From the IMG/VR virus record IMGVR_UViG_3300031673_000024: 20,000 nt of DNA. One strand, given 5' to 3'. Below the pieces are notes generated by a model that was not told the origin of the DNA, ran no database searches, and was given only the letters and a program-made list of their open reading frames with translations. The stretch is from an uncultured virus (IMG/VR IMGVR_UViG_3300031673_000024) (Duplodnaviria; Heunggongvirae; Uroviricota; Caudoviricetes). The translations under genes were made by a program, and so were the position numbers. Positions 2,822-19,376 of the stretch are shown piece after piece. Every line of letters begins with the position of its first letter. The first letter of the stretch is position 1.

Positions 2822-3094
2822 CTACTCCGGGTAGTAGCGAACGACGGCTGCGGACAGGGTGCTGCCATCACCATGTATAAAGACATGCGCTTCCATGTGG
2901 TCCTCGTGCTCCGAAACGGCGCCGATACCGAACTCTCCCGCAGGCACATACGTCGGAGTGAACCGCCCATGCTTATCGAGTAGACGAACCAGTGGGTAGC
3001 GGACCTGCTGAAGATGGAACCGCGCGTGACCGTGGTTCGCGCCCGAGGCGGCGAAGGTATCCGCAAGAGCGTCGATCAATTGTGTAACGTTCAC
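2822..3094 (-). CDS. Hypothetical protein (90 aa)
   Basis: GTG start overlaps the TGA of the upstream 57-aa ORF (GTGA). Its stop lies 3 nt before the amidase ATG, consistent with operon packing. Confidence 0.65.
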   Translation of the reverse strand: MNVTQLIDALADTFAASGANHGHARFHLQQVRYPLVRLLDKHGRFTPTYVPAGEFGIGAVSEHEDHMEAHVFIHGDGSTLSAAVVRYYPE

Positions 3095-3267: not shown

Positions 3268-4101
3268 TCAGCCCTTCTTTTGTGAGTACATCCGCTTATC
3301 TGCCTGTAAGAGCAGGGTGTCGATGTCGTTACCGTCTTCGGGGAAGGTGGCTACGCCACACGAAACACCCACCGAAACATCAACATCTCCTACCGCAATT
3401 GGCCTCCCAATGACAGCGCGAATACGCGACGCTATGACCTCCGCCTCGCTTACGCTTCGGAGCATGGACAAGAAGACCAAGAACTCATCGCCCGCGAACC
3501 TGGAGACAGTATCTGTCTGGCGAACAGTCTCCCTAAGGCGTAGCGCTACTGATCGCAGAACGGCATCACCCACGGCGTGCCCATAAGTGTCATTGATGGG
3601 CTTAAAACTGTCGAGGTCCAGGAAGAGGATAGCAGCGCCACGTTGCTCACGTCCTGCTTGGGCCAGTCCTTGCTGGACTCGATCCATGAACAGGTGCCTG
3701 TTGGGCAACCCCGTAACCGCGTCGTAGTGAGCCCTATGCGCTAGCTCTGCTTCTCTCGTCTTGTCCTCGGTAACGTCTCGTCCGATGAGGATCGCTTCAT
3801 TGTCGCCTACGCATGGCGTAGCGCTCAAGGACAGCCATAGCGAATCACCACCATTCGTCTGAAAGTGCCGGGTGCCACGAAGGGCAGCCCCCGTACTGTC
3901 GGCACGCACGGCTACAGCTTCCTCAGGATGCATGAGGTCGAGAAGAGAACCTCCCTCAATCTTGTCGTTCCCAAATAGGTAACGGAACATCGGGTTAACC
4001 TTGCGCAGCAGGTAGCCACGCAGGTCGACGATAGCCATAGGGTCTGCCGCCAGCTCAAATAGGAGACCGAGCCTATCTTCCTGTCCAATAATTATCGGCA
4101 C
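3268..4101 (-). CDS. PAS-GGDEF diguanylate cyclase
   Basis: 277 aa. PAS-like N-terminus (DPMAIVDLRG...VNPMF...LMHPEE...WLSLSATP...GRDVTEDK). GGDEF hallmarks: AHYDAVTGLPNR, FLDLDSFKPINDTYGHAVGDAVL, I-site RQTD, A-site RFAGDEF, VSCGVATFP and ADKRMY. Confidence 0.95.
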   Translation of the reverse strand: MPIIIGQEDRLGLLFELAADPMAIVDLRGYLLRKVNPMFRYLFGNDKIEGGSLLDLMHPEEAVAVRADSTGAALRGTRHFQTNGGDSLWLSLSATPCVGDNEAILIGRDVTEDKTREAELAHRAHYDAVTGLPNRHLFMDRVQQGLAQAGREQRGAAILFLDLDSFKPINDTYGHAVGDAVLRSVALRLRETVRQTDTVSRFAGDEFLVFLSMLRSVSEAEVIASRIRAVIGRPIAVGDVDVSVGVSCGVATFPEDGNDIDTLLLQADKRMYSQKKG

Positions 4102-4204: not shown

Positions 4205-6862
4205 TCAGCCGCAGCCGGTTGTGTCCCCGCAGTTGTCGCACTTGTGGCACGAACCTGCACGAACAGTCATGTGACCACAAGCAAGGCATGGAGGACCAGA
4301 AACAACCCGCCGACCCTCGCGCACTGGGACACTGGGTTTGGCAACAGAGGCGGAAGGTGATCCGGGCTCTGCGGTGGTCCTCATCTCGACGATCCTCGCA
4401 ATGTAGTCGAGCAGCGACGTAGCCGAGGGAACATCCGGGTTGCCCGTGAACCCAGCAGGCTCGAACGAGGTGTGCTTGAACTTCTCAGTGAGGGTGTCCA
4501 CAGGGATACCCCACTGAATCGCAATCGAGAACAGCGTCGCCCAGCCGTCGAGGAGACCGTTGAGAGTCGATCCCTGCTTGGAGACGTTCACGAACACTTC
4601 ACCAAGCTGTCCGTCCGGGTAGTACCCGAGCGTCAGGTAGCCGTTATGCCCGTTGAGTCCGAACTTGTGTACGGATGCCATACGGTCGTTAGGCATCGGA
4701 CGGCGGTGAAGCTCCCCAGCCGCCACAGAACGCGGAGCGGTCTCCGCGTCGACGTTGAGAGGCTGGCTCTCCTTGCAGCCGTCACGGTAGATGGCAATCG
4801 CCTTCAAGCCCATGCGCCACGCTTCCATGTACATCTGCTTGACGTCCTCCACCGTGGACTCGCTGGGCATGTTCACGGTCTTGCTGATAGCGCCAGACAA
4901 GAAAGGCTGACAGGCAGCCATCATGTTCACATGACCCATAGCCGAGATCGACCTATCACCGCGTTTAGGCTTGAGGGAGCAGTCGAAAACCGCCAGGTCC
5001 TTGTCCTTGATATGCGGAGAACCCTCGATGGTGTCGTTCGCTTCGATGTACGCGATGATGTCAGCCACATTCTCGGCGGAGTAGCCGATGTTACGCAAGG
5101 CCATACCCACGCCCTGGTTGACGATCTTCATGCTCCCGCCGCCGACGAGCTTCTTGTACTTGACGAGGGCGAGGTCAGGCTCGATGCCGGTTGTGTCGCA
5201 ATCCATCATGAACGAGATCGTGCCTGTCGGAGCGAGAACACTGGCCTGCGCGTTGCGCATTCCAGTGCTATTGGCGTACGTGATGGCAGCCTCCCACTCA
5301 TCATGGGCCTCGGTGAAGATGTCCGAGAACATGGAACGGCTGGCGTGGTCGTCGTTTGCTGCCAGATGCATCTTCAGCACTTCCGTCATCGGCTCCCGAT
5401 TGCGGAAGAAGCCCTCGAAAGCCCCGACCTTCTCGGCGATCTGACCACTCATCCGGTAAGAGGTAGCAGACATGAGCGAGGTGATCGATCCAGCTAGGTC
5501 ACGACCCTTGGTGCTGTTGTAGGGCAGACCGAGAGACATGAGCAGGGCTCCCAGGTTGGCGAAGCCGATACCCAATGTGCGGTACTTCTTCGCCTCTCTG
5601 GTGATGTTCTCCGTGGGGAAGCCCGAGAAGGAGATGAGCGTCTCCTGCGCGAGAATAGTAAACTCCACACCAGCCTTGAAGGCGTCGACGTCGAACGCCC
5701 CATCATCCTTACGGAACTTCATCAAGTTAAGAGAAGCAAGGTTACATGCCGAGTTGTCGAGGAACATGAACTCCGAACATGGGTTCGATGCCACGATCTG
5801 ACCGTCCGCCGAGCACGTGTGCCACTCGTTCACGGTATCGTGAAACTGGAGGCCAGGGTCGCCACATGCCCAAGCAGCCTCAGCAATCTTGCCGAAAAGA
5901 TCGCGTGCATTGACCATACGGGCTACGCCACCATCAGGCACACGCGACTTGAGGCCCCAAGAGGACCCCTCCTCGACCGCCTTCATAAAGGCGTCGCTGA
6001 TACGAACCGAGTTGTTAGCGTTCTGCCAAGGAGCGAGGTCGTAGGCACCGCCTTCCTTGTTGAACTCGGGAGAGAAGCCAGCGGCGATGAGAGCCTGGAC
6101 AACCTTCTCGGCCTCCACCTTCGTCATCACGAACGCTTCAATGTCTGGGTGGTCGTCGTTCATGACGAGCATCTTGGCTGCGCGTCGCGTCTTGCCTCCC
6201 GACTTGATCGCAGCGGCGCTGCGGTCCCATCCCAAGGCAAACGACAGCGGCCCGGAGGCGTAGCCGCCGCCCGACAGTCGGGCGTTCTTCTCGCGGATGC
6301 GGGAGATGTTCACCCCTGCCCCGGAACCCTTGCGGAAGACGTAGCCTTCTTCGGTGGCGAGGTTGAGGATCGACTCCATTGTGTCGTCGACACTCAGGAT
6401 GAAGCAGGCGCTCGACTGCGGGTTCTCTTCTGCCCCGACGTTGAACCAGACAGGCGAGTTGAACGCCATCATCTGGTTGAGGCACATGAAGCGAAGCTCG
6501 TCTTCGAGAATCTTCCCAGCATCATCGGACAGATACCGGTTCTCTACGGCTGCGGTGGCGATGGTGACGACGACGCGGTCGATCAGTTGACGGACAGAGG
6601 ACTCGCGCTTCTCCCCGTGGCCACGGAAATACTTGGAGGCGACGATGTTCGTAGCGTTCTGCGACCAGAACTTGGGTACCTCGACACCGTACTGCTCGAA
6701 GATGATCTCCCCGTCGAGGTCCTTCATGACGACGTCGCGCATCTCCCATTCGACCTCGTCGTAGGGTGATGTCGTCGTAGTGAAGTAGCGCTTGAGGGGG
6801 AGCCGCTTGGCTTTGACAGAAGTAGAAGAAGTGGGAACAGTAGCCGTAGCGGCGTCCAACAT
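4205..6862 (-). CDS. nrdJ: Adenosylcobalamin (B12)-dependent class II ribonucleotide reductase
   Basis: 885 aa. Motifs WSQNATNIVASKYF, FNSPVWFN, PQSSACFI, KSGGKTRRAAKM, active-site ASNPCSEF, ACNLASLNL, APTGTIS and GAISKTVNMP. C-terminal TSCPD-type domain and Zn ribbon ending CLACG...CHKCDNCGDTTGCG. GAGGG RBS. Confidence 0.96.
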   Translation of the reverse strand: MLDAATATVPTSSTSVKAKRLPLKRYFTTTTSPYDEVEWEMRDVVMKDLDGEIIFEQYGVEVPKFWSQNATNIVASKYFRGHGEKRESSVRQLIDRVVVTIATAAVENRYLSDDAGKILEDELRFMCLNQMMAFNSPVWFNVGAEENPQSSACFILSVDDTMESILNLATEEGYVFRKGSGAGVNISRIREKNARLSGGGYASGPLSFALGWDRSAAAIKSGGKTRRAAKMLVMNDDHPDIEAFVMTKVEAEKVVQALIAAGFSPEFNKEGGAYDLAPWQNANNSVRISDAFMKAVEEGSSWGLKSRVPDGGVARMVNARDLFGKIAEAAWACGDPGLQFHDTVNEWHTCSADGQIVASNPCSEFMFLDNSACNLASLNLMKFRKDDGAFDVDAFKAGVEFTILAQETLISFSGFPTENITREAKKYRTLGIGFANLGALLMSLGLPYNSTKGRDLAGSITSLMSATSYRMSGQIAEKVGAFEGFFRNREPMTEVLKMHLAANDDHASRSMFSDIFTEAHDEWEAAITYANSTGMRNAQASVLAPTGTISFMMDCDTTGIEPDLALVKYKKLVGGGSMKIVNQGVGMALRNIGYSAENVADIIAYIEANDTIEGSPHIKDKDLAVFDCSLKPKRGDRSISAMGHVNMMAACQPFLSGAISKTVNMPSESTVEDVKQMYMEAWRMGLKAIAIYRDGCKESQPLNVDAETAPRSVAAGELHRRPMPNDRMASVHKFGLNGHNGYLTLGYYPDGQLGEVFVNVSKQGSTLNGLLDGWATLFSIAIQWGIPVDTLTEKFKHTSFEPAGFTGNPDVPSATSLLDYIARIVEMRTTAEPGSPSASVAKPSVPVREGRRVVSGPPCLACGHMTVRAGSCHKCDNCGDTTGCG

Positions 6863-9767: not shown

Positions 9768-10208
9768 TCAGCCCTTCACGCCTTCAAGCAGCTTCTTGAG
9801 CTTGCCTGCGATGGTCTCAAGCTCGTCGGCCAGCGCCTGGGCCTCATCGTCTTCCATCTTCGTCGTCTTGGCCTTACGAAGGGCAGCGATGGTCTGACCA
9901 CCAATGCCCATCACCTTCTTCAAGGCGTTGACAACCGACTTGGCGTCATCAGGCAGCTTGTCATCCGACTTCTGCTTTGCTTGAACCAGGGCACGCTTGT
10001 CGAGGAGATGCTCCACCTTGGCGAGAGCGTAGATGACGCCGCTCTGCTTTTGGAGTGAGGACCTGAGGATGTTCTTTGCGATGTTGGTGACAAGCCCGAG
10101 GTCACCGTCATCGAAATCCGCTTCCTTCTTGCCCCGCTGAGCGGACACAGTTTTCTTGGCCTTCTTCCAAGCCTTCTCTTCTTCGGTGGTGTTAACCCAA
10201 GCGGGCAT
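9768..10208 (-). CDS. Hypothetical helical phage protein, probably head-associated
   Basis: 146 aa, AGGAG RBS. N-terminal 'MPAWV...EEKAWKKAKK...LVTNIAKNI' resembles a small domain recurrent in phage head regions. Helical C-terminus. Confidence 0.75.
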   Translation of the reverse strand: MPAWVNTTEEEKAWKKAKKTVSAQRGKKEADFDDGDLGLVTNIAKNILRSSLQKQSGVIYALAKVEHLLDKRALVQAKQKSDDKLPDDAKSVVNALKKVMGIGGQTIAALRKAKTTKMEDDEAQALADELETIAGKLKKLLEGVKG

Positions 10209-10432: not shown

Positions 10433-11545
10433 CTAGACGCGGGTGCCGATGGCGACGGCGCGGTCCTGAACGTGGAGAGACTCCAAGCCCATGAGGTAGA
10501 AGCCGCGGCGCGGCGCACCCAATGGATAATGGTTGATCTCTGTCGACTGGATCTCGCGACGAACACCACGCTGGCCGAGGGCGATCGGGGTGCCGAGAGC
10601 GAAGACCTCACCCGGCTGCAACACCTGGAGGGTGTCGTAGCGGAAGCCGTCGGTGATCAGGTTCATGTCGAGCAGGGCGCCGAGCTTGCCCTCCATGATC
10701 AACTGGTACTTGTGAACGGGCTCCCACCACGTCGTGAACGACGGGTCGGCGATCATGTCGTCCCAGATGTCGAAGGAGAACAGGAGGTGAGCGGCGGGGA
10801 TGCCGTTCGACAGGACCTGCGTGCGGAGCGCCGTGAGAACCTGCGGCGTGAACGTCGCGAAGCTCACCGGAGCGTTGAAGACACCAGCCGTGGCGAGGAG
10901 CAGGCTTCGCAGAATGCGATCCTGGCGAACCATGACCGCTTCGAGCGCGTCCTGGAACTTCTCGTCAAGGAACTCCGGGCCTGCCTGAGCAAGCTCGCGC
11001 TCCTCGATGAGCACCTGGCTCTGGAGGTAGTAGTCCTGGGGGTAGATGTACGCCTGCTCGACGATCTGTGCGATACCTTCGCCATCGTTGATGACTTGGA
11101 ACGCGGTCACGTCCTTGCGGCGCAGCTTGATGCGGTTGTCCACACCGTCGACGACGTCCTTGCGGGCGACGACCTGCGGTGTGAAGCCCTGACGGTTCAG
11201 GGTTTCCCACACATCCTCGGCGAACACTTCGCCCATGAGCTTCATGCGATCATCGCCAGAACCGAAGGCGCTGACGAGTTCCTCGTGACGCTCCTTCTTG
11301 GCGCTGAGCTTGGCGCGCTCATCGGTGAAGCCTGCGTCACTGCCGATCTGGCCGTTCTGAACCATCGCGTGGAGCGCGTTGATCTTCTGGGCGAGGTCTT
11401 TGGTGTCGTAGGCGTTGATCTCACCAGAGGCGTCGGTCATGCGACCACCCGCTGCCTGGATCTGACCGTTGCTCTTCTTTGCGAACGCGGGCATGTGCCC
11501 CATCACGGGCTCCCGCGTCGCCAAATGGAAGTCCTGTCGAAGCAT
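10433..11545 (-). CDS. Major capsid protein (HK97 fold, jumbo-phage type)
   Basis: 370 aa, strongly GC3-biased codons, strong AAGGAG RBS, followed by a terminator. Lies last in the portal-protease-scaffold series. Motifs GEINAYDTKDL, ETLNRQGF, EKFQDALEAVMVRQDR and EGKLGALLDMNLITDGFR recall capsid proteins of PaBG/Lu11/RSL1/Y3-like jumbo myoviruses (from recall, unverified). Confidence 0.85.
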   Translation of the reverse strand: MLRQDFHLATREPVMGHMPAFAKKSNGQIQAAGGRMTDASGEINAYDTKDLAQKINALHAMVQNGQIGSDAGFTDERAKLSAKKERHEELVSAFGSGDDRMKLMGEVFAEDVWETLNRQGFTPQVVARKDVVDGVDNRIKLRRKDVTAFQVINDGEGIAQIVEQAYIYPQDYYLQSQVLIEERELAQAGPEFLDEKFQDALEAVMVRQDRILRSLLLATAGVFNAPVSFATFTPQVLTALRTQVLSNGIPAAHLLFSFDIWDDMIADPSFTTWWEPVHKYQLIMEGKLGALLDMNLITDGFRYDTLQVLQPGEVFALGTPIALGQRGVRREIQSTEINHYPLGAPRRGFYLMGLESLHVQDRAVAIGTRV

Positions 11546-11730
11546 GGACTTTCTCCTTCTTGTAGGGGCCTTTCCTCGACTCAGTTTGGTTCGGCCCCAG
11601 GTGGAAAAAGAGGACGAGTCGAGGAATGTGTTTTTGGGAAGTTGGGCGGGGAGCCCCTGTTAGGTGGTGAGGCGGGGAACAAACCCCGCACTCACCTAGA
11701 GGTTGTGAAGTTCAGGAGAACTTCAACCTC
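11546..11730 (-). promoter_or_regulatory. Structured 5' leader of the major capsid gene (several hairpins plus an anti-Shine-Dalgarno pairing)
   Basis: Stems at 11699-11730, 11665-11696 and 11572-11582/11616-11626. Loop segments 11593-11598 and 11603-11610 are complementary to 11565-11570 and to the RBS region. Confidence 0.6.
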
Positions 11731-11839
11731 ACTTCTTCTTGCCCTTCTTGAGCTGAGCCTTGCCACGGCCACCCTTCACGGGGGCGCGACGGCTGTGACC
11801 CTTGACGGTCGGCGAACGGCTGTACTTCTTGACTTTCAT
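11729..11839 (-). CDS. 36-aa highly basic peptide (MKVKKYSRSPTVKGHSRRAPVKGGRGKAQLKKGKKK), putative nucleic-acid-binding core protein
   Basis: Translated by hand; not in the ORF track. GAGGAG RBS 7 nt before ATG. Codons are mostly G/C-ending, as in the capsid gene. 15 of 36 residues are K/R and none are acidic. Confidence 0.85.
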   Translation of the reverse strand: MKVKKYSRSPTVKGHSRRAPVKGGRGKAQLKKGKKK

Positions 11840-11924
11840 GATGAACTCCTCGCGGTGTGGCGACGTGTGTGTGTGTTTGGTTATTGTCTAGGTAGTGCGG
11901 GAGACCGCGAGGTAGTCCAGGAGT

Positions 11925-11954
11925 GAGCGGCGGTGAGTCAACTCACCGCCGCTC
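11925..11954. other. 14-bp perfect inverted repeat after the charge-block gene (mRNA processing/stabilising hairpin or plus-strand terminator)
   Basis: GAGCGGCGGTGAGT-ca-ACTCACCGCCGCTC. TTT follows only on the plus strand. Confidence 0.6.
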
Positions 11955-11963
11955 TTTGATCAG

Positions 11964-13412
11964 CTACTTCTTCGCCGGGGACTTCTTCTTCTTCGGTGCC
12001 CGCTTCTCCTTCATGGAGGCGAGGCGCCGGTCGTCGAGCTTGGCGAGGTCGGCAGGGTGCTTCATGCCGTACTTCTCCTTGTAAGCCTTGCGGCTCTGCG
12101 GAGACGGACGGTTCGACGTGAACCAGTACGAACCGAGGAACTTGCCCTTGGAGTCGTAGGTGTTGAAGTAGAACTTCTTGCGGACCTTCTTGCGTCCCTT
12201 GGGCGTGTTGACCGAGCCACGCATGCCCTTCTTGCTCTTCTTCATCTCGGTGCGGAAACGACGGCGCTTCCGATTGATCGTGGCCCGACGCTTCGCCTTG
12301 GCTCGCGCGGACTTGCTCATCTTCGGGCGCTTCTTCGCCGAGACCGTGCGGTTGTCCGTAACGAAGTCACGGCGCTCCTTCGGGCTCATGCTGGCGAGAA
12401 GCTCGCGAACCTGCGCAACCGAGAGGTACTCGGAAGCCTCAGCGTCCTCGATGTAGTCCTCAGGCATCTCCTCATCGTCGATACTCTCAGGAGCCATTTC
12501 GAGGGCGTCGGGGGCGTCGGTATCGACTTCTGGTTCGAGATCACTGGGTCCTTCGCTTCCGAAGTCCATCTCGACATCCGTCGCGATCAGTCGGCTCAGA
12601 CGCTTCTGAACGCGGGACAGGCGCGAGGAGATGCGGCGGCGAGCCGAACCTTCGAGCAGACCTTCCTTCTCCAGAGCAGCAAGTTCGTCTTCCGAGAGCG
12701 TCTCCATGTCGCCTTCGTCATCGTCGTCATCGTCGTCATCGCCCGAACCATCGACGTCGTCTCCGTCCTCGGAGTCGTCGTCCTCCTCGGAGTCGTCCTC
12801 TTCGGCAGATTCGTCTTCCTCGGAGTCGTCTTCCTCGTCAGCGGGCTCATCTTCCTCTTCCTCTTCCTCGGAGTCGTCATCTTCGGCAGATTCGTCTTCC
12901 TCGGAGTCGTCTTCCTCGGAGTCTTCCTCGGAGTCTTCCTCGTCAGCGGGCTCATCTTCCTCTTCCTCTTCCTCGGCGGCGGCACGCAAGGCCGCGGCTG
13001 CAAGGTCAAGGGACGAAAGAGCGAGTTCCTCATCGTCCATGTCGTCGTCGCCGAGCATGTCCATCGGCTCCATGTCGTCGTCGCCGAGCATGTCCATCGG
13101 CTCCATGTCGTCGTCGCCCATGTCGTCGTCGAGCATCATGTCCATCGGATCTTCGTCCAGCATGTCCATGTCGTCGTCGCCGAGCATGTCTTCCATGCCC
13201 TCTTCCATCATCTCCTCTTCGGGAGACTCCTCGGAATCGAGCATCATTTCGTCCTCTTCCATCGCCCGGATCTCCGACTTGATGTCGCGGAGTTCGGACA
13301 TGGCGGCGCGGATCTCCTTGCGCTTCGCCGGAGAGGCGGTCTTCATAGCCGCGCGAAGCCCGCTCATTGCCTCGCGGATCTTCCGGCTGGTCTGAGCCTG
13401 GATACGGTTCAT
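11964..13412 (-). CDS. Low-complexity charge-block protein (basic N-terminus, very acidic repeats, Lys/Arg-rich C-terminus), probable internal head/core protein
   Basis: 482 aa from ATG 13412 (MNRIQAQ..., AAGGAG RBS). The track's TTG start at 13493 falls inside a hairpin loop. Located between the decoration and capsid genes. Confidence 0.8.
   Translation of the reverse strand: MNRIQAQTSRKIREAMSGLRAAMKTASPAKRKEIRAAMSELRDIKSEIRAMEEDEMMLDSEESPEEEMMEEGMEDMLGDDDMDMLDEDPMDMMLDDDMGDDDMEPMDMLGDDDMEPMDMLGDDDMDDEELALSSLDLAAAALRAAAEEEEEEDEPADEEDSEEDSEEDDSEEDESAEDDDSEEEEEEDEPADEEDDSEEDESAEEDDSEEDDDSEDGDDVDGSGDDDDDDDDEGDMETLSEDELAALEKEGLLEGSARRRISSRLSRVQKRLSRLIATDVEMDFGSEGPSDLEPEVDTDAPDALEMAPESIDDEEMPEDYIEDAEASEYLSVAQVRELLASMSPKERRDFVTDNRTVSAKKRPKMSKSARAKAKRRATINRKRRRFRTEMKKSKKGMRGSVNTPKGRKKVRKKFYFNTYDSKGKFLGSYWFTSNRPSPQSRKAYKEKYGMKHPADLAKLDDRRLASMKEKRAPKKKKSPAKK
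12760..12976 (-). repeat. Composite coding repeats (EEEEEEDEPADEED x2, SEEDESAE x2, DSEE units)
   Basis: GTCTTCCTCGTCAGCGGGCTCATCTTCCTCTTCCTCTTCCTCGG occurs twice, with additional 12-15 bp TCTTCCTCGGAG units. Confidence 0.85.
13036..13118 (-). repeat. 33-bp tandem repeat, 2.5 copies (encodes DDDMEPMDMLG)
   Basis: TCCATGTCGTCGTCGCCGAGCATGTCCATCGGC at 13036-13068 and 13069-13101, partial at 13102-13118, with degenerate copies beyond. Confidence 0.9.
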
Positions 13413-13474
13413 TTCTTCTTGCTCCTTGAGAAAACTGCGGGTTTCGTGCTGTGAAAGGGGGGAGGGGGAAAGAC

Positions 13475-13513
13475 GAGTAAGGGTCTCCGGCAAAAAACCG
13501 GAGACCCTTACTC
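13475..13513 (-). terminator. 16-bp perfect hairpin after the decoration gene (weak terminator/attenuator or processing site)
   Basis: GAGTAAGGGTCTCCGG-caaaaaa-CCGGAGACCCTTACTC. On the minus strand it is followed by the pyrimidine run GTCTTTCCCCCTCCCCCCTTTC. Confidence 0.6.
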
Positions 13514-15903: not shown

Positions 15904-16554
15904 TCATGTGCGCGGGTGACCAACGATGATCTTCATGTGCCGGTGCCCGGCAATGTCCCTGTAGTACCAACCAGGATTGTCAGGGTACTTGCCAGAGGGA
16001 TGCTCTCCGACCCACTCGATCTTCTTTCCGTTCAGAACCTTCTTCGCTGTCTCAGGATCGTTCACGGTAGGGACGTGGTGCCGCGTAAGAAGGATGTGGG
16101 CGATGGCATCTGACACTTCTGCGAAGACACCCTTCTTGCGGAGGAGCAGGTCTGCCTTGTGCTTGACCACAGCCTTCTTAGCTAGCGAAGTGTCATCGTG
16201 CCCCATCCCGACGTATTTTTCGCCAGCCTTCTTGGTATCCACGAGGTTCAGCGCGTCTGCCTCTGGATCGGCATCAATGTCAGCGGCGTCGAAGAAGACG
16301 ACCTCTCCACCAAGTAGGTCGATAGGGTTGCGGAGCTTGAAGTGCCCGCCGATCTGCCGGTAGGCGTTCTGGATCAACTCGAACAGTTCATCCTGAAGCT
16401 CCGGGTCATCCCGCAGGTCGTCTACCGTCAGCCTAGTCCACTTGTTCTTGGGGATGTTGAGGTCGGCGAAGTCCGCTCGGATAGCGTTCTCCGTCAACCT
16501 ATCAGCGGCAGCGAGTAGAGCCTTGGCGACGTGTAGCTTAGTCTGCCTGTCCAC
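15904..16554 (-). CDS. Hypothetical phage protein with helical N-terminal leader, possible head-packaged enzyme (GNAT-like fold, tentative)
   Basis: 216 aa, GTG start with GGGGAG RBS, 2 nt after the protease stop. Conserved-looking motifs LIQNAYRQIGG, KYVGMGHD, FAEVSDAIAHIL and WYYRDIAGHRHMKIIVGHP. Confidence 0.7.
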   Translation of the reverse strand: MDRQTKLHVAKALLAAADRLTENAIRADFADLNIPKNKWTRLTVDDLRDDPELQDELFELIQNAYRQIGGHFKLRNPIDLLGGEVVFFDAADIDADPEADALNLVDTKKAGEKYVGMGHDDTSLAKKAVVKHKADLLLRKKGVFAEVSDAIAHILLTRHHVPTVNDPETAKKVLNGKKIEWVGEHPSGKYPDNPGWYYRDIAGHRHMKIIVGHPRT

Positions 16555-16556
16555 CG

Positions 16557-17378
16557 TTACTCCCCGAACGGCTTCTGCTGCGTCTGAAAGGCGCCATAGT
16601 TCGCCGGGTCACCTACCGAAGACGACTCGAAGAAGTGGTAGTCGTAGACCGCGTCGTACACGAGGCTTCCTTTGAGGACCTGCCCCTTGCCCATGAACTT
16701 GCCCTGGACACGCTGCTGCTGCGGTCCCTTCATGCAGTCACAGGCCGACGGATAGCTCGTATCCCAGCGATGCCCGCAGTTTGCACAGTCCATGGAAGCG
16801 GTCCACGCGCTCATGCTGTGGCCACGACGACGACCAGAAAGAACATCATCAGCAAGCTGACTGTCCTTCGTACGGTCGAACGCCTTGAGGATCATGGTGA
16901 ACCAGCGGCCATTCACCTGCTTCATCGAAGCGTCGAGGATGACACCCTTCGCCTTCGTGTTGTCATCATGCTGGTGCTCGTAAAACACCGGCTTACCCAC
17001 GAACGTGCGATACGCTTGAACACCGAACTTGGGAACCCAGTCAACCAACCGAGAGGTCAGGAAGCAGTCCATGTTACGGTTGGGCACATCGCCTTCAACG
17101 ATGGGCACCTCAGCGATGACGTAGTCTCGGATGTCCGCCGACAGGCAGTAGGCGTCAGCCGCAGCGGGGAGCCAGGACACGTCCACCACAGAGCTTCGGT
17201 CGAGGGCCGAGGCGCTTGCCATCAGCATCCGACCAGTCCCACGATCTAGGTCGTATCCCAGACGGAAAGACTCCTCGGTGTTGATCTGATCCGCGTAGGA
17301 ATGGAGGATGTGGGAGTCTTTGGGGTTCGCTGTAGCAGCCGACAGAGCAGAACCTTCGGGGATGATGAGAGAGGTCAT
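16557..17378 (-). CDS. Prohead maturation protease (HK97/assemblin-like serine protease fold) with Zn-finger insertion
   Basis: 273 aa directly after the portal. Motifs PNRNMDCF, FVGKPVFYEH (candidate catalytic His), KAKGVILDA, GHSMSA (candidate catalytic Ser), CANCG...CDC and FFESSSVGDPA. Confidence 0.8.
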   Translation of the reverse strand: MTSLIIPEGSALSAATANPKDSHILHSYADQINTEESFRLGYDLDRGTGRMLMASASALDRSSVVDVSWLPAAADAYCLSADIRDYVIAEVPIVEGDVPNRNMDCFLTSRLVDWVPKFGVQAYRTFVGKPVFYEHQHDDNTKAKGVILDASMKQVNGRWFTMILKAFDRTKDSQLADDVLSGRRRGHSMSAWTASMDCANCGHRWDTSYPSACDCMKGPQQQRVQGKFMGKGQVLKGSLVYDAVYDYHFFESSSVGDPANYGAFQTQQKPFGE

Positions 17379-17381
17379 AGG

Positions 17382-19376
17382 TCAGACTGCCTTCCCGGCT
17401 TTGTTCAGGGTATCGAAATCCCGATTTAGCCGTGCGCGGTCCACTGAGAGGTCTTCTCGTGGTGTCCCTGACAGTTTGGTATCCGTAGGGACATAGACGC
17501 GGGAAGCGTCCGCCTTGAAGGAAGCTGACTCCACCACACCCTCCGACAACTCCTTCGCCTTTTTCTTCTCCTTGTCGGTCAACTCATTGACATCGTACCC
17601 GTCCTCGTCTTCCGCGAAGTCGAGTTTCGACACGCCCTTCTGGAGCTTCTCGATCTCGGCAGAAAGCTCATCGGGCTCCATGTCGCCAGCGCCCTCTTGA
17701 AGAGTCATGATCTGCTGCTTCAACTGCTGGAACTTCATAGCCTCCAGGCGGAAGTCCAGGTCAGCAACCGCCGTCCGCATCCGGTCGGCTAGTTCGCCAC
17801 CACCAAGGGTACGGTTCCACTCGGCTGCCCCGACAGGCAAGCCCTTCTCTTCCATCTTGTCGAGAAGGTCGGCACGGGCCATATCCGCCGTGGAGTCAAG
17901 GCTCTTGTGGAAGATGAGCGTAGGAAGGATGAGTTCGTGGTCGTCGTCGTCGATGATGATCCGGTGAGCAAGCTCTGCGGGGGTGCGGCGCCGGAAGTTG
18001 TGGACGACAGCCAAAGCACGGAAGAACTTCTGGATGAGGAAGGTCTCCACCACGTACTTCCGGTGTGCCTTCAGGCGCTCCATGAAGATCGTGGGGGCCG
18101 TTGTCGTATCAATGTTCATATCCCCCATAAGGAGTGATTCAGAAACACCGAACATCTTGAGCTTGGCTTCCTGCAAGAAGCTCCACTCGTCCTGCCACTT
18201 CCACATCTCAGCGAGCGATCCACGGATCTGATTGAAGTCAACGTCGTAACGTGTGCCGATGGTTGACGACACGCTGTCTTCTTCGGCGGCGGTGTAAGCA
18301 GACACCAAAGCATCGATCTGCTCGGGGGTAGGCTCCCACTGCTCGGAGCCAACGCGAATCTGCGTAATGGGTCCGGCACGGCGGCGGTGCCCGGTCAACG
18401 TCGCGTTGATGAGGCTCTTCTCAAGGCCCCACAATGGGATGTTGCGTACGTAGAAGGAGGTACCGTAGATGTCGCTGAAGAACGACCGGCGAGGAAGGTA
18501 CGCCGTAGTCGTTGGATCGAGCGGGATCGGCTGGTTCTGGCCGAGAGCGTCGAGAAGCTCCTTCGGCATCCCCTTACGGGAGTCGACGTCACGCTCGTCC
18601 TGGCTTTTTACCCACGCCTGCATAGCAGGAGAAGGTACAAGGTCGAGCTTAGGCATGAAGCCAGTGCGTGGGATCTCACCGATGTTCACGTAGTCAGCGT
18701 CGTGGATGACCATGTCAGTCCAGATGCCCAACTCCGCGTTGAGGATAAGCTGGATGATGACGCGCCCGATGACTAGGTACTCCTTGGTGATGTCCTCCAA
18801 GTACCTGTCGACACGTACAGCATCCTTGGCCGCCCAATAGGTATCGATTATGGTTGGGTCCCGGATGCCGGCGATGTCGAAGTCTGACCAGCACATCTCC
18901 GCAATGGTCTCGACCACGGGGCCTTCGATGACCCCGCGGTTGAACATGATGCGGAACATGCGGTTCTGTGAACGCGGGTCCTGTGGGATCCAGTCTTCAG
19001 CGACCGTGCCTCGGCTGAGGTCGTCGTAGACAGGGTTGTACCGGTCGACCGTGGCCCCAGAGGAACCAAAGCCGCCGCTCCCGCCGAAGCCACCAAGACC
19101 ACCGCTCCCGCCGCTACTCCCACCACTACCAAAGGAGCCAACAGCAGAGACTGTATTTGCTTCTACTACAGTCTTATTCTTCTGATTGAGACGCTCGTGC
19201 ATCGTAGCTGCATGCACGTGCCCATCTTCGTCTTTCACAAATCCGCGACGGGACTTCAGGCCGCTTACAACACCGGCTCCGGCGTCGTTGTTGGCACTGT
19301 TTCCTTTACCGGTAGGACGGTTGACACTCTCAATGAGTGAAGAAACAACACGCTGGCGACGACCAATACGGAGCAT
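17382..19376 (-). CDS. Portal protein
   Basis: 664 aa, first gene of the head series. Portal-like features: ITKEYLVIGRV, YLPRR...DIYGTS, LEKSLINATL...RRAGPI, QIRVGSEQWEPTPEQIDAL, KLKMFGVSESLLMG and FMERLKAHRKYV. Low-complexity N- and C-terminal extensions. Confidence 0.8.
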   Translation of the reverse strand: MLRIGRRQRVVSSLIESVNRPTGKGNSANNDAGAGVVSGLKSRRGFVKDEDGHVHAATMHERLNQKNKTVVEANTVSAVGSFGSGGSSGGSGGLGGFGGSGGFGSSGATVDRYNPVYDDLSRGTVAEDWIPQDPRSQNRMFRIMFNRGVIEGPVVETIAEMCWSDFDIAGIRDPTIIDTYWAAKDAVRVDRYLEDITKEYLVIGRVIIQLILNAELGIWTDMVIHDADYVNIGEIPRTGFMPKLDLVPSPAMQAWVKSQDERDVDSRKGMPKELLDALGQNQPIPLDPTTTAYLPRRSFFSDIYGTSFYVRNIPLWGLEKSLINATLTGHRRRAGPITQIRVGSEQWEPTPEQIDALVSAYTAAEEDSVSSTIGTRYDVDFNQIRGSLAEMWKWQDEWSFLQEAKLKMFGVSESLLMGDMNIDTTTAPTIFMERLKAHRKYVVETFLIQKFFRALAVVHNFRRRTPAELAHRIIIDDDDHELILPTLIFHKSLDSTADMARADLLDKMEEKGLPVGAAEWNRTLGGGELADRMRTAVADLDFRLEAMKFQQLKQQIMTLQEGAGDMEPDELSAEIEKLQKGVSKLDFAEDEDGYDVNELTDKEKKKAKELSEGVVESASFKADASRVYVPTDTKLSGTPREDLSVDRARLNRDFDTLNKAGKAV

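Follow-up and report, generated by a model that had tools for sequence, protein, structure and literature searches.

Protamines, adenovirus mu and baculovirus P6.9 are Arg-rich, and the adenovirus and baculovirus cores are non-pressurised; histone H1 and HU-like tails carry basic repeats of the SPKK or PAKKA type and bind DNA in a disordered state. The internal proteins of the bacteriophage T4 head are of ~8–20 kDa, and their targeting sequence is cleaved by the prohead protease at a Glu-containing motif. According to the published account, internal proteins number ~1000 per T4 head, touch the DNA phosphates with their lysines and carry an N-terminal capsid-targeting sequence; IPI, IPII and IPIII are basic, lysine-rich, encoded alongside the head genes, loaded into the prohead together with the scaffolding core and located on the packaged DNA (PMC3012670). 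Adenovirus pVII is described as protamine-like (PMC10548178) and P6.9 as a viral core protein (PMC5899202). Here we analyse a small open reading frame (ORF) of 36 codons in the head module of an uncultured tailed phage, contained in a 20,000-nucleotide stretch of the IMG/VR record IMGVR_UViG_3300031673_000024 (hereafter, the window). No tailed-phage precedent for a protamine-like or small basic head peptide was found in the open-access literature.

Like the T4 internal proteins, the peptide encoded by this ORF is basic and Lys-rich (11 of 36 residues are K; pI 12.0) and is encoded between a scaffold-like gene and the major head gene. Unlike those proteins, which are folded, it has 36 residues, is predicted to be coil, contains no Glu, shows no sequence similarity to them and is known here from its gene. 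Adenovirus mu and pVII and baculovirus P6.9 are small, strongly basic proteins that lack acidic residues and whose task is the condensation or neutralisation of the viral DNA, and the window peptide is likewise small, basic and devoid of D and E; unlike these Arg-rich proteins of eukaryotic viruses, it is Lys-rich, belongs to a tailed phage and has no homology to them that we could find. The initial annotation had called the peptide protamine-like, which does not hold for its composition (11 K and 4 R). Its short tandem units rich in Lys, Pro, Ser and Ala (e.g. SPTVK and RAPVK) recall the H1 and HU-like tails, from which it differs in repeat motif and repeat length, in being a free-standing peptide with no folded domain and in yielding no profile match.

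The small ORF and its homologue in a related phage

The small ORF is quite probably a real and translated gene that is accessory and lineage-restricted. A strong Shine–Dalgarno (SD) sequence, its codon use and a homologue in L016, a contig of a metagenome-assembled genome (MAG), lift it above chance. Our reading, to which we assign a rough probability of 0.35, is that it is a genuine but accessory small gene of the late head cluster whose product would bind a polyanion electrostatically. The features on which this reading draws are as follows.

11729..11839, minus strand: 36-codon ORF (ATG..TGA) encoding a +15, Lys-rich peptide with three 9-residue V-K-x-x-x-R units
11771..11823, minus strand: 27-nt (9-codon) tandem duplication within the small ORF (TRF: period 27, 2.0 copies, 81% matches, score 69)
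11846..11851, minus strand: SD sequence GAGGAG, 6 nt before the small-ORF ATG, base-paired in the fold predicted for the window
11865..11876, minus strand: (AC)6 tract in the 5' untranslated region, seen in the sequence; the L016 counterpart is A/C-rich (AAACCACCACA) and lies directly before the SD
4579..4692 of L016, minus strand: 37-aa homologue of the small ORF between the scaffold-like and capsid genes, with the product MASKKKRVSVKKYDRKKTVAKHTRRKGVKGKRRLPKK

The ORF extends on the minus strand from an ATG at 11839 to a TGA at 11731–11729, and its product is MKVKKYSRSPTVKGHSRRAPVKGGRGKAQLKKGKKK, a 4.0-kDa peptide with 11 K (31%), 4 R (11%) and no acidic residue, giving a charge of ~+15. The units VKKYSR, VKGHSR and VKGGRG begin at residues 3, 12 and 21, respectively, with a period of exactly 9 residues. 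Because the units lie 9 residues apart and a 27-nt tandem repeat underlies them, the peptide is a short array of a 9-residue V-K-x-x-x-R unit, derived in part from a 27-nt tandem duplication. AlphaFold2 modelling with a two-sequence alignment including the L016 homologue returned coil throughout (mean pLDDT, 67; pTM, 0.14), and the peptide is predicted to be intrinsically unfolded. The scaffold-like gene and the major head (capsid) gene are 418 nt apart; the ORF lies in this spacer and ends 183 nt before the capsid ATG. The coordinates, the counts of K, R and acidic residues and the three V-K units given in the initial annotation were all recovered, as were the GAGGAG ribosome-binding site and the (AC)n tract upstream of it; its placement of the ORF 'immediately upstream' of the capsid gene, with no strand stated, corresponds to a distance of 183 nt.

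A 6-mer SD precedes only 1 of the 120 other ORFs of 30–70 aa in the window. Most window genes have no recognisable SD, strong ones being present only at the capsid gene, at the small ORF and at 9768..10208, and the data suggest that this phage adjusts the expression level of its genes through the strength of the SD. When the spacer was shuffled 20,000 times, an ORF of at least 36 aa coincided with a 4-mer SD in 1,803 cases and with a 6-mer SD in 108 (0.54%). The GC content at third codon positions (GC3) of the small ORF is 0.80 and so falls between the values for the capsid gene (0.84) and for all genes (0.74). Its log-odds coding score (0.43 per codon) is higher than that of any of 108 ORFs that are out of frame or antisense (maximum, 0.057) and than that of 93% of real 35-codon windows.

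Capsid-based searches yielded six related phage loci, five of which have a readable scaffold–capsid spacer, and these five and the window (i.e. the window, L001, L002, L003, L004 and L016) constitute the six phages compared throughout. L001–L004 are four IMG/VR contigs whose capsid proteins are 79–85% identical to that of the window, and the capsid protein of L016 is 84% identical. The sixth locus, L005, is a 1.4-kb fragment with the capsid gene and only 58 nt of upstream sequence; it is one of three capsid matches in metagenome contigs that add no upstream context, the others being L006, which equals L002, and L007, a 3' fragment.

The 37-aa ORF of L016 is preceded by an AGGAGA SD at the same spacing from the ATG as in the window. 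The two peptides have VKKYxRxxTVxxHxRRxxVKGxR in common, with 17 invariant columns, and the conserved residues include Y, T and H in addition to K and R. The BLASTP E-value between them is 2e-5 (composition-adjusted), and the local score of the pair (67) was reached by 2 of 20,000 composition-preserving shuffles (mean, 30). No frame other than frame 0 is open in both. At 3 of the 14 core residues that are identical, the two phages use different synonymous codons, and the non-identical codons differ at two to three positions, so that the core is a mosaic in which conserved codons are intact and the remaining codons are saturated. The 9-residue spacing of Val is kept in L016 (positions 10, 19 and 28), whose peptide has 19 K+R, with Lys dominant, and no Glu. 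The spacer 5' of the ORF cannot be aligned between the two phages, as expected from the synonymous divergence (dS) of 0.89 between their capsid genes. The small ORF probably founds an orphan family with two known members, shaped by the tandem duplication of a 9-codon unit.

Chance, database searches and distribution among relatives

Several results weigh against the reading as an accessory gene, and most of them would also fit a chance or very young ORF that has no settled function, in a spacer expanded partly through the 27-nt tandem duplication, and that is either untranslated or translated inconsequentially; this alternative is unlikely, though a serious contender. Length by itself is not above chance, since an ORF of at least 36 aa occurred in 15,821 of the 20,000 shuffled spacers (79%), and the same spacer contains a second ORF of 36 aa (11581..11691; coding score, −0.148) that is evidently spurious. 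The capsid-like codon usage claimed in the initial annotation is borne out by GC3 and by the coding score, but it is mostly driven by AAG, which provides 10 of the 11 Lys codons. Because the score drops to 0.105 once the Lys codons are removed (real-gene mean, 0.26; sd, 0.15; 5th percentile, 0.011), the support from codon use has to be discounted; the corresponding value for the L016 homologue is −0.017. Over the 24-codon core, a tiny sample with little power for such a comparison, dN was 0.59 and dS 0.54, with no signal of purifying selection. The SD pairs with the upstream CCUCGCGG in the predicted fold of the window, a pairing that has no equivalent in L016. Of the 'unstructured tract' proposed earlier, the AC repeat is indeed unpaired in that fold but the SD is not, and because the SD is predicted to be sequestered, the window's own fold argues against the description of the ORF as highly expressed.

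Searches in databases point in the same direction. No protein among 1.84 billion representative proteins matched the peptide at E ≤ 0.001 (phmmer), Pfam, NCBIfam and PHROG contained no match at E ≤ 10, and the exact peptide is absent from a collection of 15 billion proteins, in which the capsid protein of the same phage is present (three contigs). Neither the 3.2-kb region (megablast) nor the peptide (tblastn, E ≤ 10) had a match in 50,697 phage records, no PDB chain matched the peptide at E ≤ 10, and neither an exact 41-nt stretch of the ORF nor a degenerate pattern of the conserved peptide core was found in IMG/VR. In favour of a gene, the ESM Atlas contains the exact peptide, meaning that another pipeline called it as such; its best feature score there (0.82) is at chance level by the calibration of the tool.

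What speaks against a chance or young ORF is that L016 has an ORF of nearly the same length at the same place and with the same SD spacing, despite the divergence of the capsid genes and an upstream spacer that cannot be aligned. In addition, the similarity of the two peptides was so rarely equalled by shuffling, residues other than K and R (Y, T and H) are conserved, and a 6-mer SD was seldom produced in shuffled spacers.

Contigs of four DNA sequencing runs were also compared with the window, and pieces identical to it were present in runs X2, X4 and X5. The X2 pieces cover the small ORF except for 11760–11772, and those of X4 cover 11795–11839 only; there is no variant inside the ORF among the pieces listed from these two runs. 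The X5 pieces flank the ORF, X6 contributes one identical 36-nt piece in the capsid gene, and no listed piece of either run lies on the ORF. X2, X4 and X5 are labelled as soil and sediment metagenomes from different studies, in which the window-identical pieces (11000–12600) occur beside diverged relatives.

The distribution of the ORF is patchy, which also counts against a settled role. The scaffold–capsid spacer measures 418 nt in the window and 414 nt in L016 compared with 181–273 nt in L001–L004, and the spacers of these four phages contain neither such an ORF nor any basic ORF of at least 10 aa, so that it is lacking in four of the six phages. Nor was a copy found elsewhere in the searched parts of the L001–L004 contigs with a two-sequence profile (CheckV completeness, 15–48%). 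A small basic ORF upstream of the capsid gene is thus shared with one relative (L016) and missing from four. By gene content and identity, the closest relative of the window is G001/L001, which is without the small ORF; several window genes are missing from L016, where the ORF is present (the window and G001 were compared at 15904–16554, 2822–3094 and 3268–4101). A relic of the ORF in L001 was sought and rejected, the best local match being 10 nt long and equalled by 200 of 2,000 shuffles. Because the closest relative has neither the ORF nor a detectable relic and L016 has the ORF, its distribution requires at least one loss or lateral exchange, and the history of this spacer of the head module differs from that of the flanking genome (mosaicism or loss). 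The order of the window, L001, L016 and L005 was not resolved in the capsid tree. Because four of the six phages do without it, capsids of this type cannot in general require the peptide for packaging. In the distant jumbo phages BcepSauron, RSL1 and GR7B, the spacers before the capsid gene are 33–95 nt long and leave no room for it.

This patchiness, which does not track relatedness by gene content, is what would be expected of an accessory, moron-like gene in the head cluster for a host-directed or anti-defence peptide, e.g. a nuclease blocker or protector delivered with the DNA. As with phage morons and small ORFans, the gene is small, lies between two conserved late genes, is present in the window and L016 only and forms a cassette bracketed by stem-loops, and the T-even internal proteins are described as a diverse anti-restriction set (PMC3012670). 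Unlike morons, however, it has a composition, GC content and codon use native to the phage and no promoter of its own that could be recognised, the promoter scan having returned no sigma-70-like promoter; moreover, no homology was found in the libraries searched, which did not include PADLOC or the anti-defence libraries. We give this explanation little credence.

L016, the only relative from the genome collection, is contig 15 of MAG G005 (80.9 kb), assigned to an uncultured member of the Bacteriovoracaceae, and the contig breaks off within the head module. It probably derives from a phage, and its binning may be either a hint to the host or an artefact. Among 401 genomes of the phylum of G005, the capsid was found in 1, the MAG itself, and in none of the other 400.

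RNA structures of the spacer and the surrounding head module

The spacer also contains several predicted RNA structures.

11925..11954, minus strand: 13-bp G+C-rich hairpin without a U tract, 10 nt after the stop codon of the scaffold-like gene; not called by the consensus terminator scan
11666..11730, minus strand: two hairpins directly after the small ORF (−41.9 kcal/mol; z, −7.2)
11546..11665, minus strand: conserved structured 5' leader of the major head gene, with nested stems followed by an AAGGAGA SD (six-phage alignment)

In the leader, RNAalifold predicted 27 pairs across the six phages, 5 of which show compensatory changes. An invariant CAGGGGCU/AGGCCCC stem encloses an 11-bp UUCCUCGxxUC/GAxxCGAGGAA stem, and the structure ends just before the SD. 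A second GGGGCC could compete for the same GGCCCC, and one diverged relative in the sequencing runs mentioned above has a 5-nt deletion at 11560, within the leader. An Rfam scan of 11300–12200 at E ≤ 10 returned only sub-threshold chance matches and no family for the leader, and no tRNA was found. The leader may represent a new RNA element that regulates capsid expression in cis late in infection. It is kept in all six phages and the small ORF in two; because the leader is present with or without the ORF, it does not depend on it.

The two hairpins after the ORF raise the possibility that the ORF acts in cis, as an upstream ORF or leader peptide: a ribosome terminating on the stop-codon hairpin would remodel the RNA and tune read-through into, or translation of, the capsid gene, and the peptide would be a by-product or an arrest peptide. 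The first of the window hairpins contains the last two bases of the stop codon, L016 likewise has two hairpins after its ORF of which the first contains the stop codon (z, −5.3), and in both phages they precede the conserved capsid leader. The last codons of the ORF moreover encode a run of Lys (window, KKGKKK; L016, PKK after KGKRRL), and the 5' region of the window has a predicted fold with a z of −5.7. Even so, we hold this explanation to be rather improbable: the leader with its covarying stems is kept in four phages without the ORF, so that the leader also occurs without the upstream ORF, the stop codon is 183 nt away from the capsid ATG, the sequences of the hairpins are not conserved, the terminator scan found no U-tract terminator, and conservation of Y, T, H and RR is unexpected for a mere regulatory frame.

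The same four phages bear on a second RNA-based explanation, namely that the peptide acts in trans by binding RNA or the ribosome (the capsid leader, late mRNAs or the ribosome itself) and favours late translation. Its composition resembles that of small basic ribosomal proteins, and the ORF adjoins the conserved structured leader. A two-sequence profile against the PDB gave bL33 (E, 0.37) and uS19 (E, 1.1), neither of them significant, and ribosomal proteins of the bL33, bL34, bL36 and bS21 types are represented by no Pfam and no NCBIfam family at E ≤ 10 for the window peptide. Since no fold is predicted and the leader persists where the ORF is lacking, we regard such a role as very unlikely. 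The alternative offered in the initial annotation, an RNA-binding regulator of the capsid leader, is weakened accordingly, although the peptide may still act as a modulator.

All genes of the window are on the minus strand, and the region represents the head module of the phage. The neighbouring genes to which a role could be assigned are as follows.

17382..19376, minus strand: portal (phrog_16240; E, 5e-69)
16557..17378, minus strand: head maturation protease (phrog_18299; E, 2e-45)
11964..13493, minus strand: scaffold-like gene (483–509 aa), its product polyacidic in the middle and basic in the C-terminal domain
10433..11545, minus strand: major head protein gene (phrog_2522; E, 6.8e-40)

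Three proteins encoded between the protease and scaffold-like genes have no informative family match, one of them showing a weak PHROG match of unknown function (E, 0.0089). The true start of the scaffold-like gene is probably the ATG at 13412, and the scaffold-like proteins of the relatives start with MN or MK. The protein contains 157 D+E and 76 K+R, with 53 K+R and 11 D+E in its last 150 aa (charge counts with 13415 as the 5' bound). It has no Pfam or PHROG match, and the label 'scaffold' is a putative one given from position and composition. Its very long Asp/Glu-rich middle is followed by a conserved basic C-terminal domain with an FYFxTYDSKGK..G..W motif, and in L001 (1283–2715) and L004 (1466–2778) the protein is split into two ORFs at the boundary between the acidic and basic parts. 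An origin of the small ORF by duplication of the basic tail of this gene was considered and rejected, because the tblastn matches (E, 0.15–0.28) reflect composition and the blastn matches do not exceed 15 nt.

The major head protein shares 26–31% identity with its counterparts in jumbo phages (BcepSauron, RSL1 and the 260-kb phages of Erwinia and Dickeya), and all 96 matching records are below 60%. On the plus strand, opposite the small ORF, the leader and the entire capsid gene, a frame of 484 aa (10472–11926) is open. It is no gene but a shadow ORF arising from high-GC coding DNA, which a gene caller could nevertheless pick up. A few kilobases from the head genes lies a gene for a class II (B12-dependent) ribonucleotide reductase with a C-terminal TSCPD domain (4205–6862, minus strand; Pfam E, 6e-135), which is 65% identical in G001 and 23–27% identical in the other relatives.

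Proposed mode of action and significance

For the small ORF as an accessory gene of the head cluster, we infer translation of the peptide, its timing, its binding partner and its packaging as follows. The peptide would be made together with the head proteins and, as the most economical mechanism, would bind a polyanion electrostatically while heads assemble, the candidate polyanions being the adjacent scaffold-like protein with its Asp/Glu runs and DNA. In the leading specific version, the extremely acidic scaffold-like protein would first draw the peptide into the prohead; the scaffold would then be removed and the peptide stay behind; and the lysines of the peptide would finally serve as counter-ions on the packaged DNA, in the manner of the lysine-rich internal proteins of T4. 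It may later be ejected along with the DNA. This three-step model, built by analogy, is unlikely to be correct in all its parts.

The T4 internal proteins would be the closest analogue for such a mode of action. Judged from sequence, the peptide is not a member of their family, because it shows no similarity to them and has no Glu and hence no T4-type capsid-targeting or cleavage site; the lack of such a site is a further point against packaging of the peptide by the T4 route. The proposal of a protamine-like core peptide is plausible, composition and gene neighbourhood being its basis, yet its chances are low. Less probable again is the fullest version, in which a free-standing, polylysine-type repeat peptide, born in the spacer by a recent 9-codon duplication, is loaded into the prohead through its charge attraction to the polyacidic scaffold and handed over to the DNA, and so represents a protamine- or mu-like counter-ion in the Caudoviricetes that needs neither a targeting sequence nor cleavage.

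If one peptide were present per capsid subunit (~1,000–1,600 copies), they would neutralise no more than a few percent of the phosphates in a genome of ~200 kb. Any effect on charge would therefore be modulatory, which would fit the dispensability of the gene in four relatives.

Overall, the small ORF has probably been called correctly as a gene, the function proposed for it is a reasonable hypothesis, and the gene is dispensable within its own clade. Phage small proteins are described as numerous and under-annotated (PMC11323111). Genes of 30–40 codons are routinely missed by gene callers, as the absence of the exact peptide from the large protein collection illustrates. The two-member orphan family, with its putative function, is worth annotating, though it would not yet surprise a phage biologist. 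Should the peptide be made and packaged, it would provide a minimal and sequence-simple means of charge neutralisation in a large phage head and would illustrate the birth of a small gene from the intergenic DNA of a late operon; as a virion-packaged counter-ion, it would be an addition to the theme of internal proteins in tailed phages.

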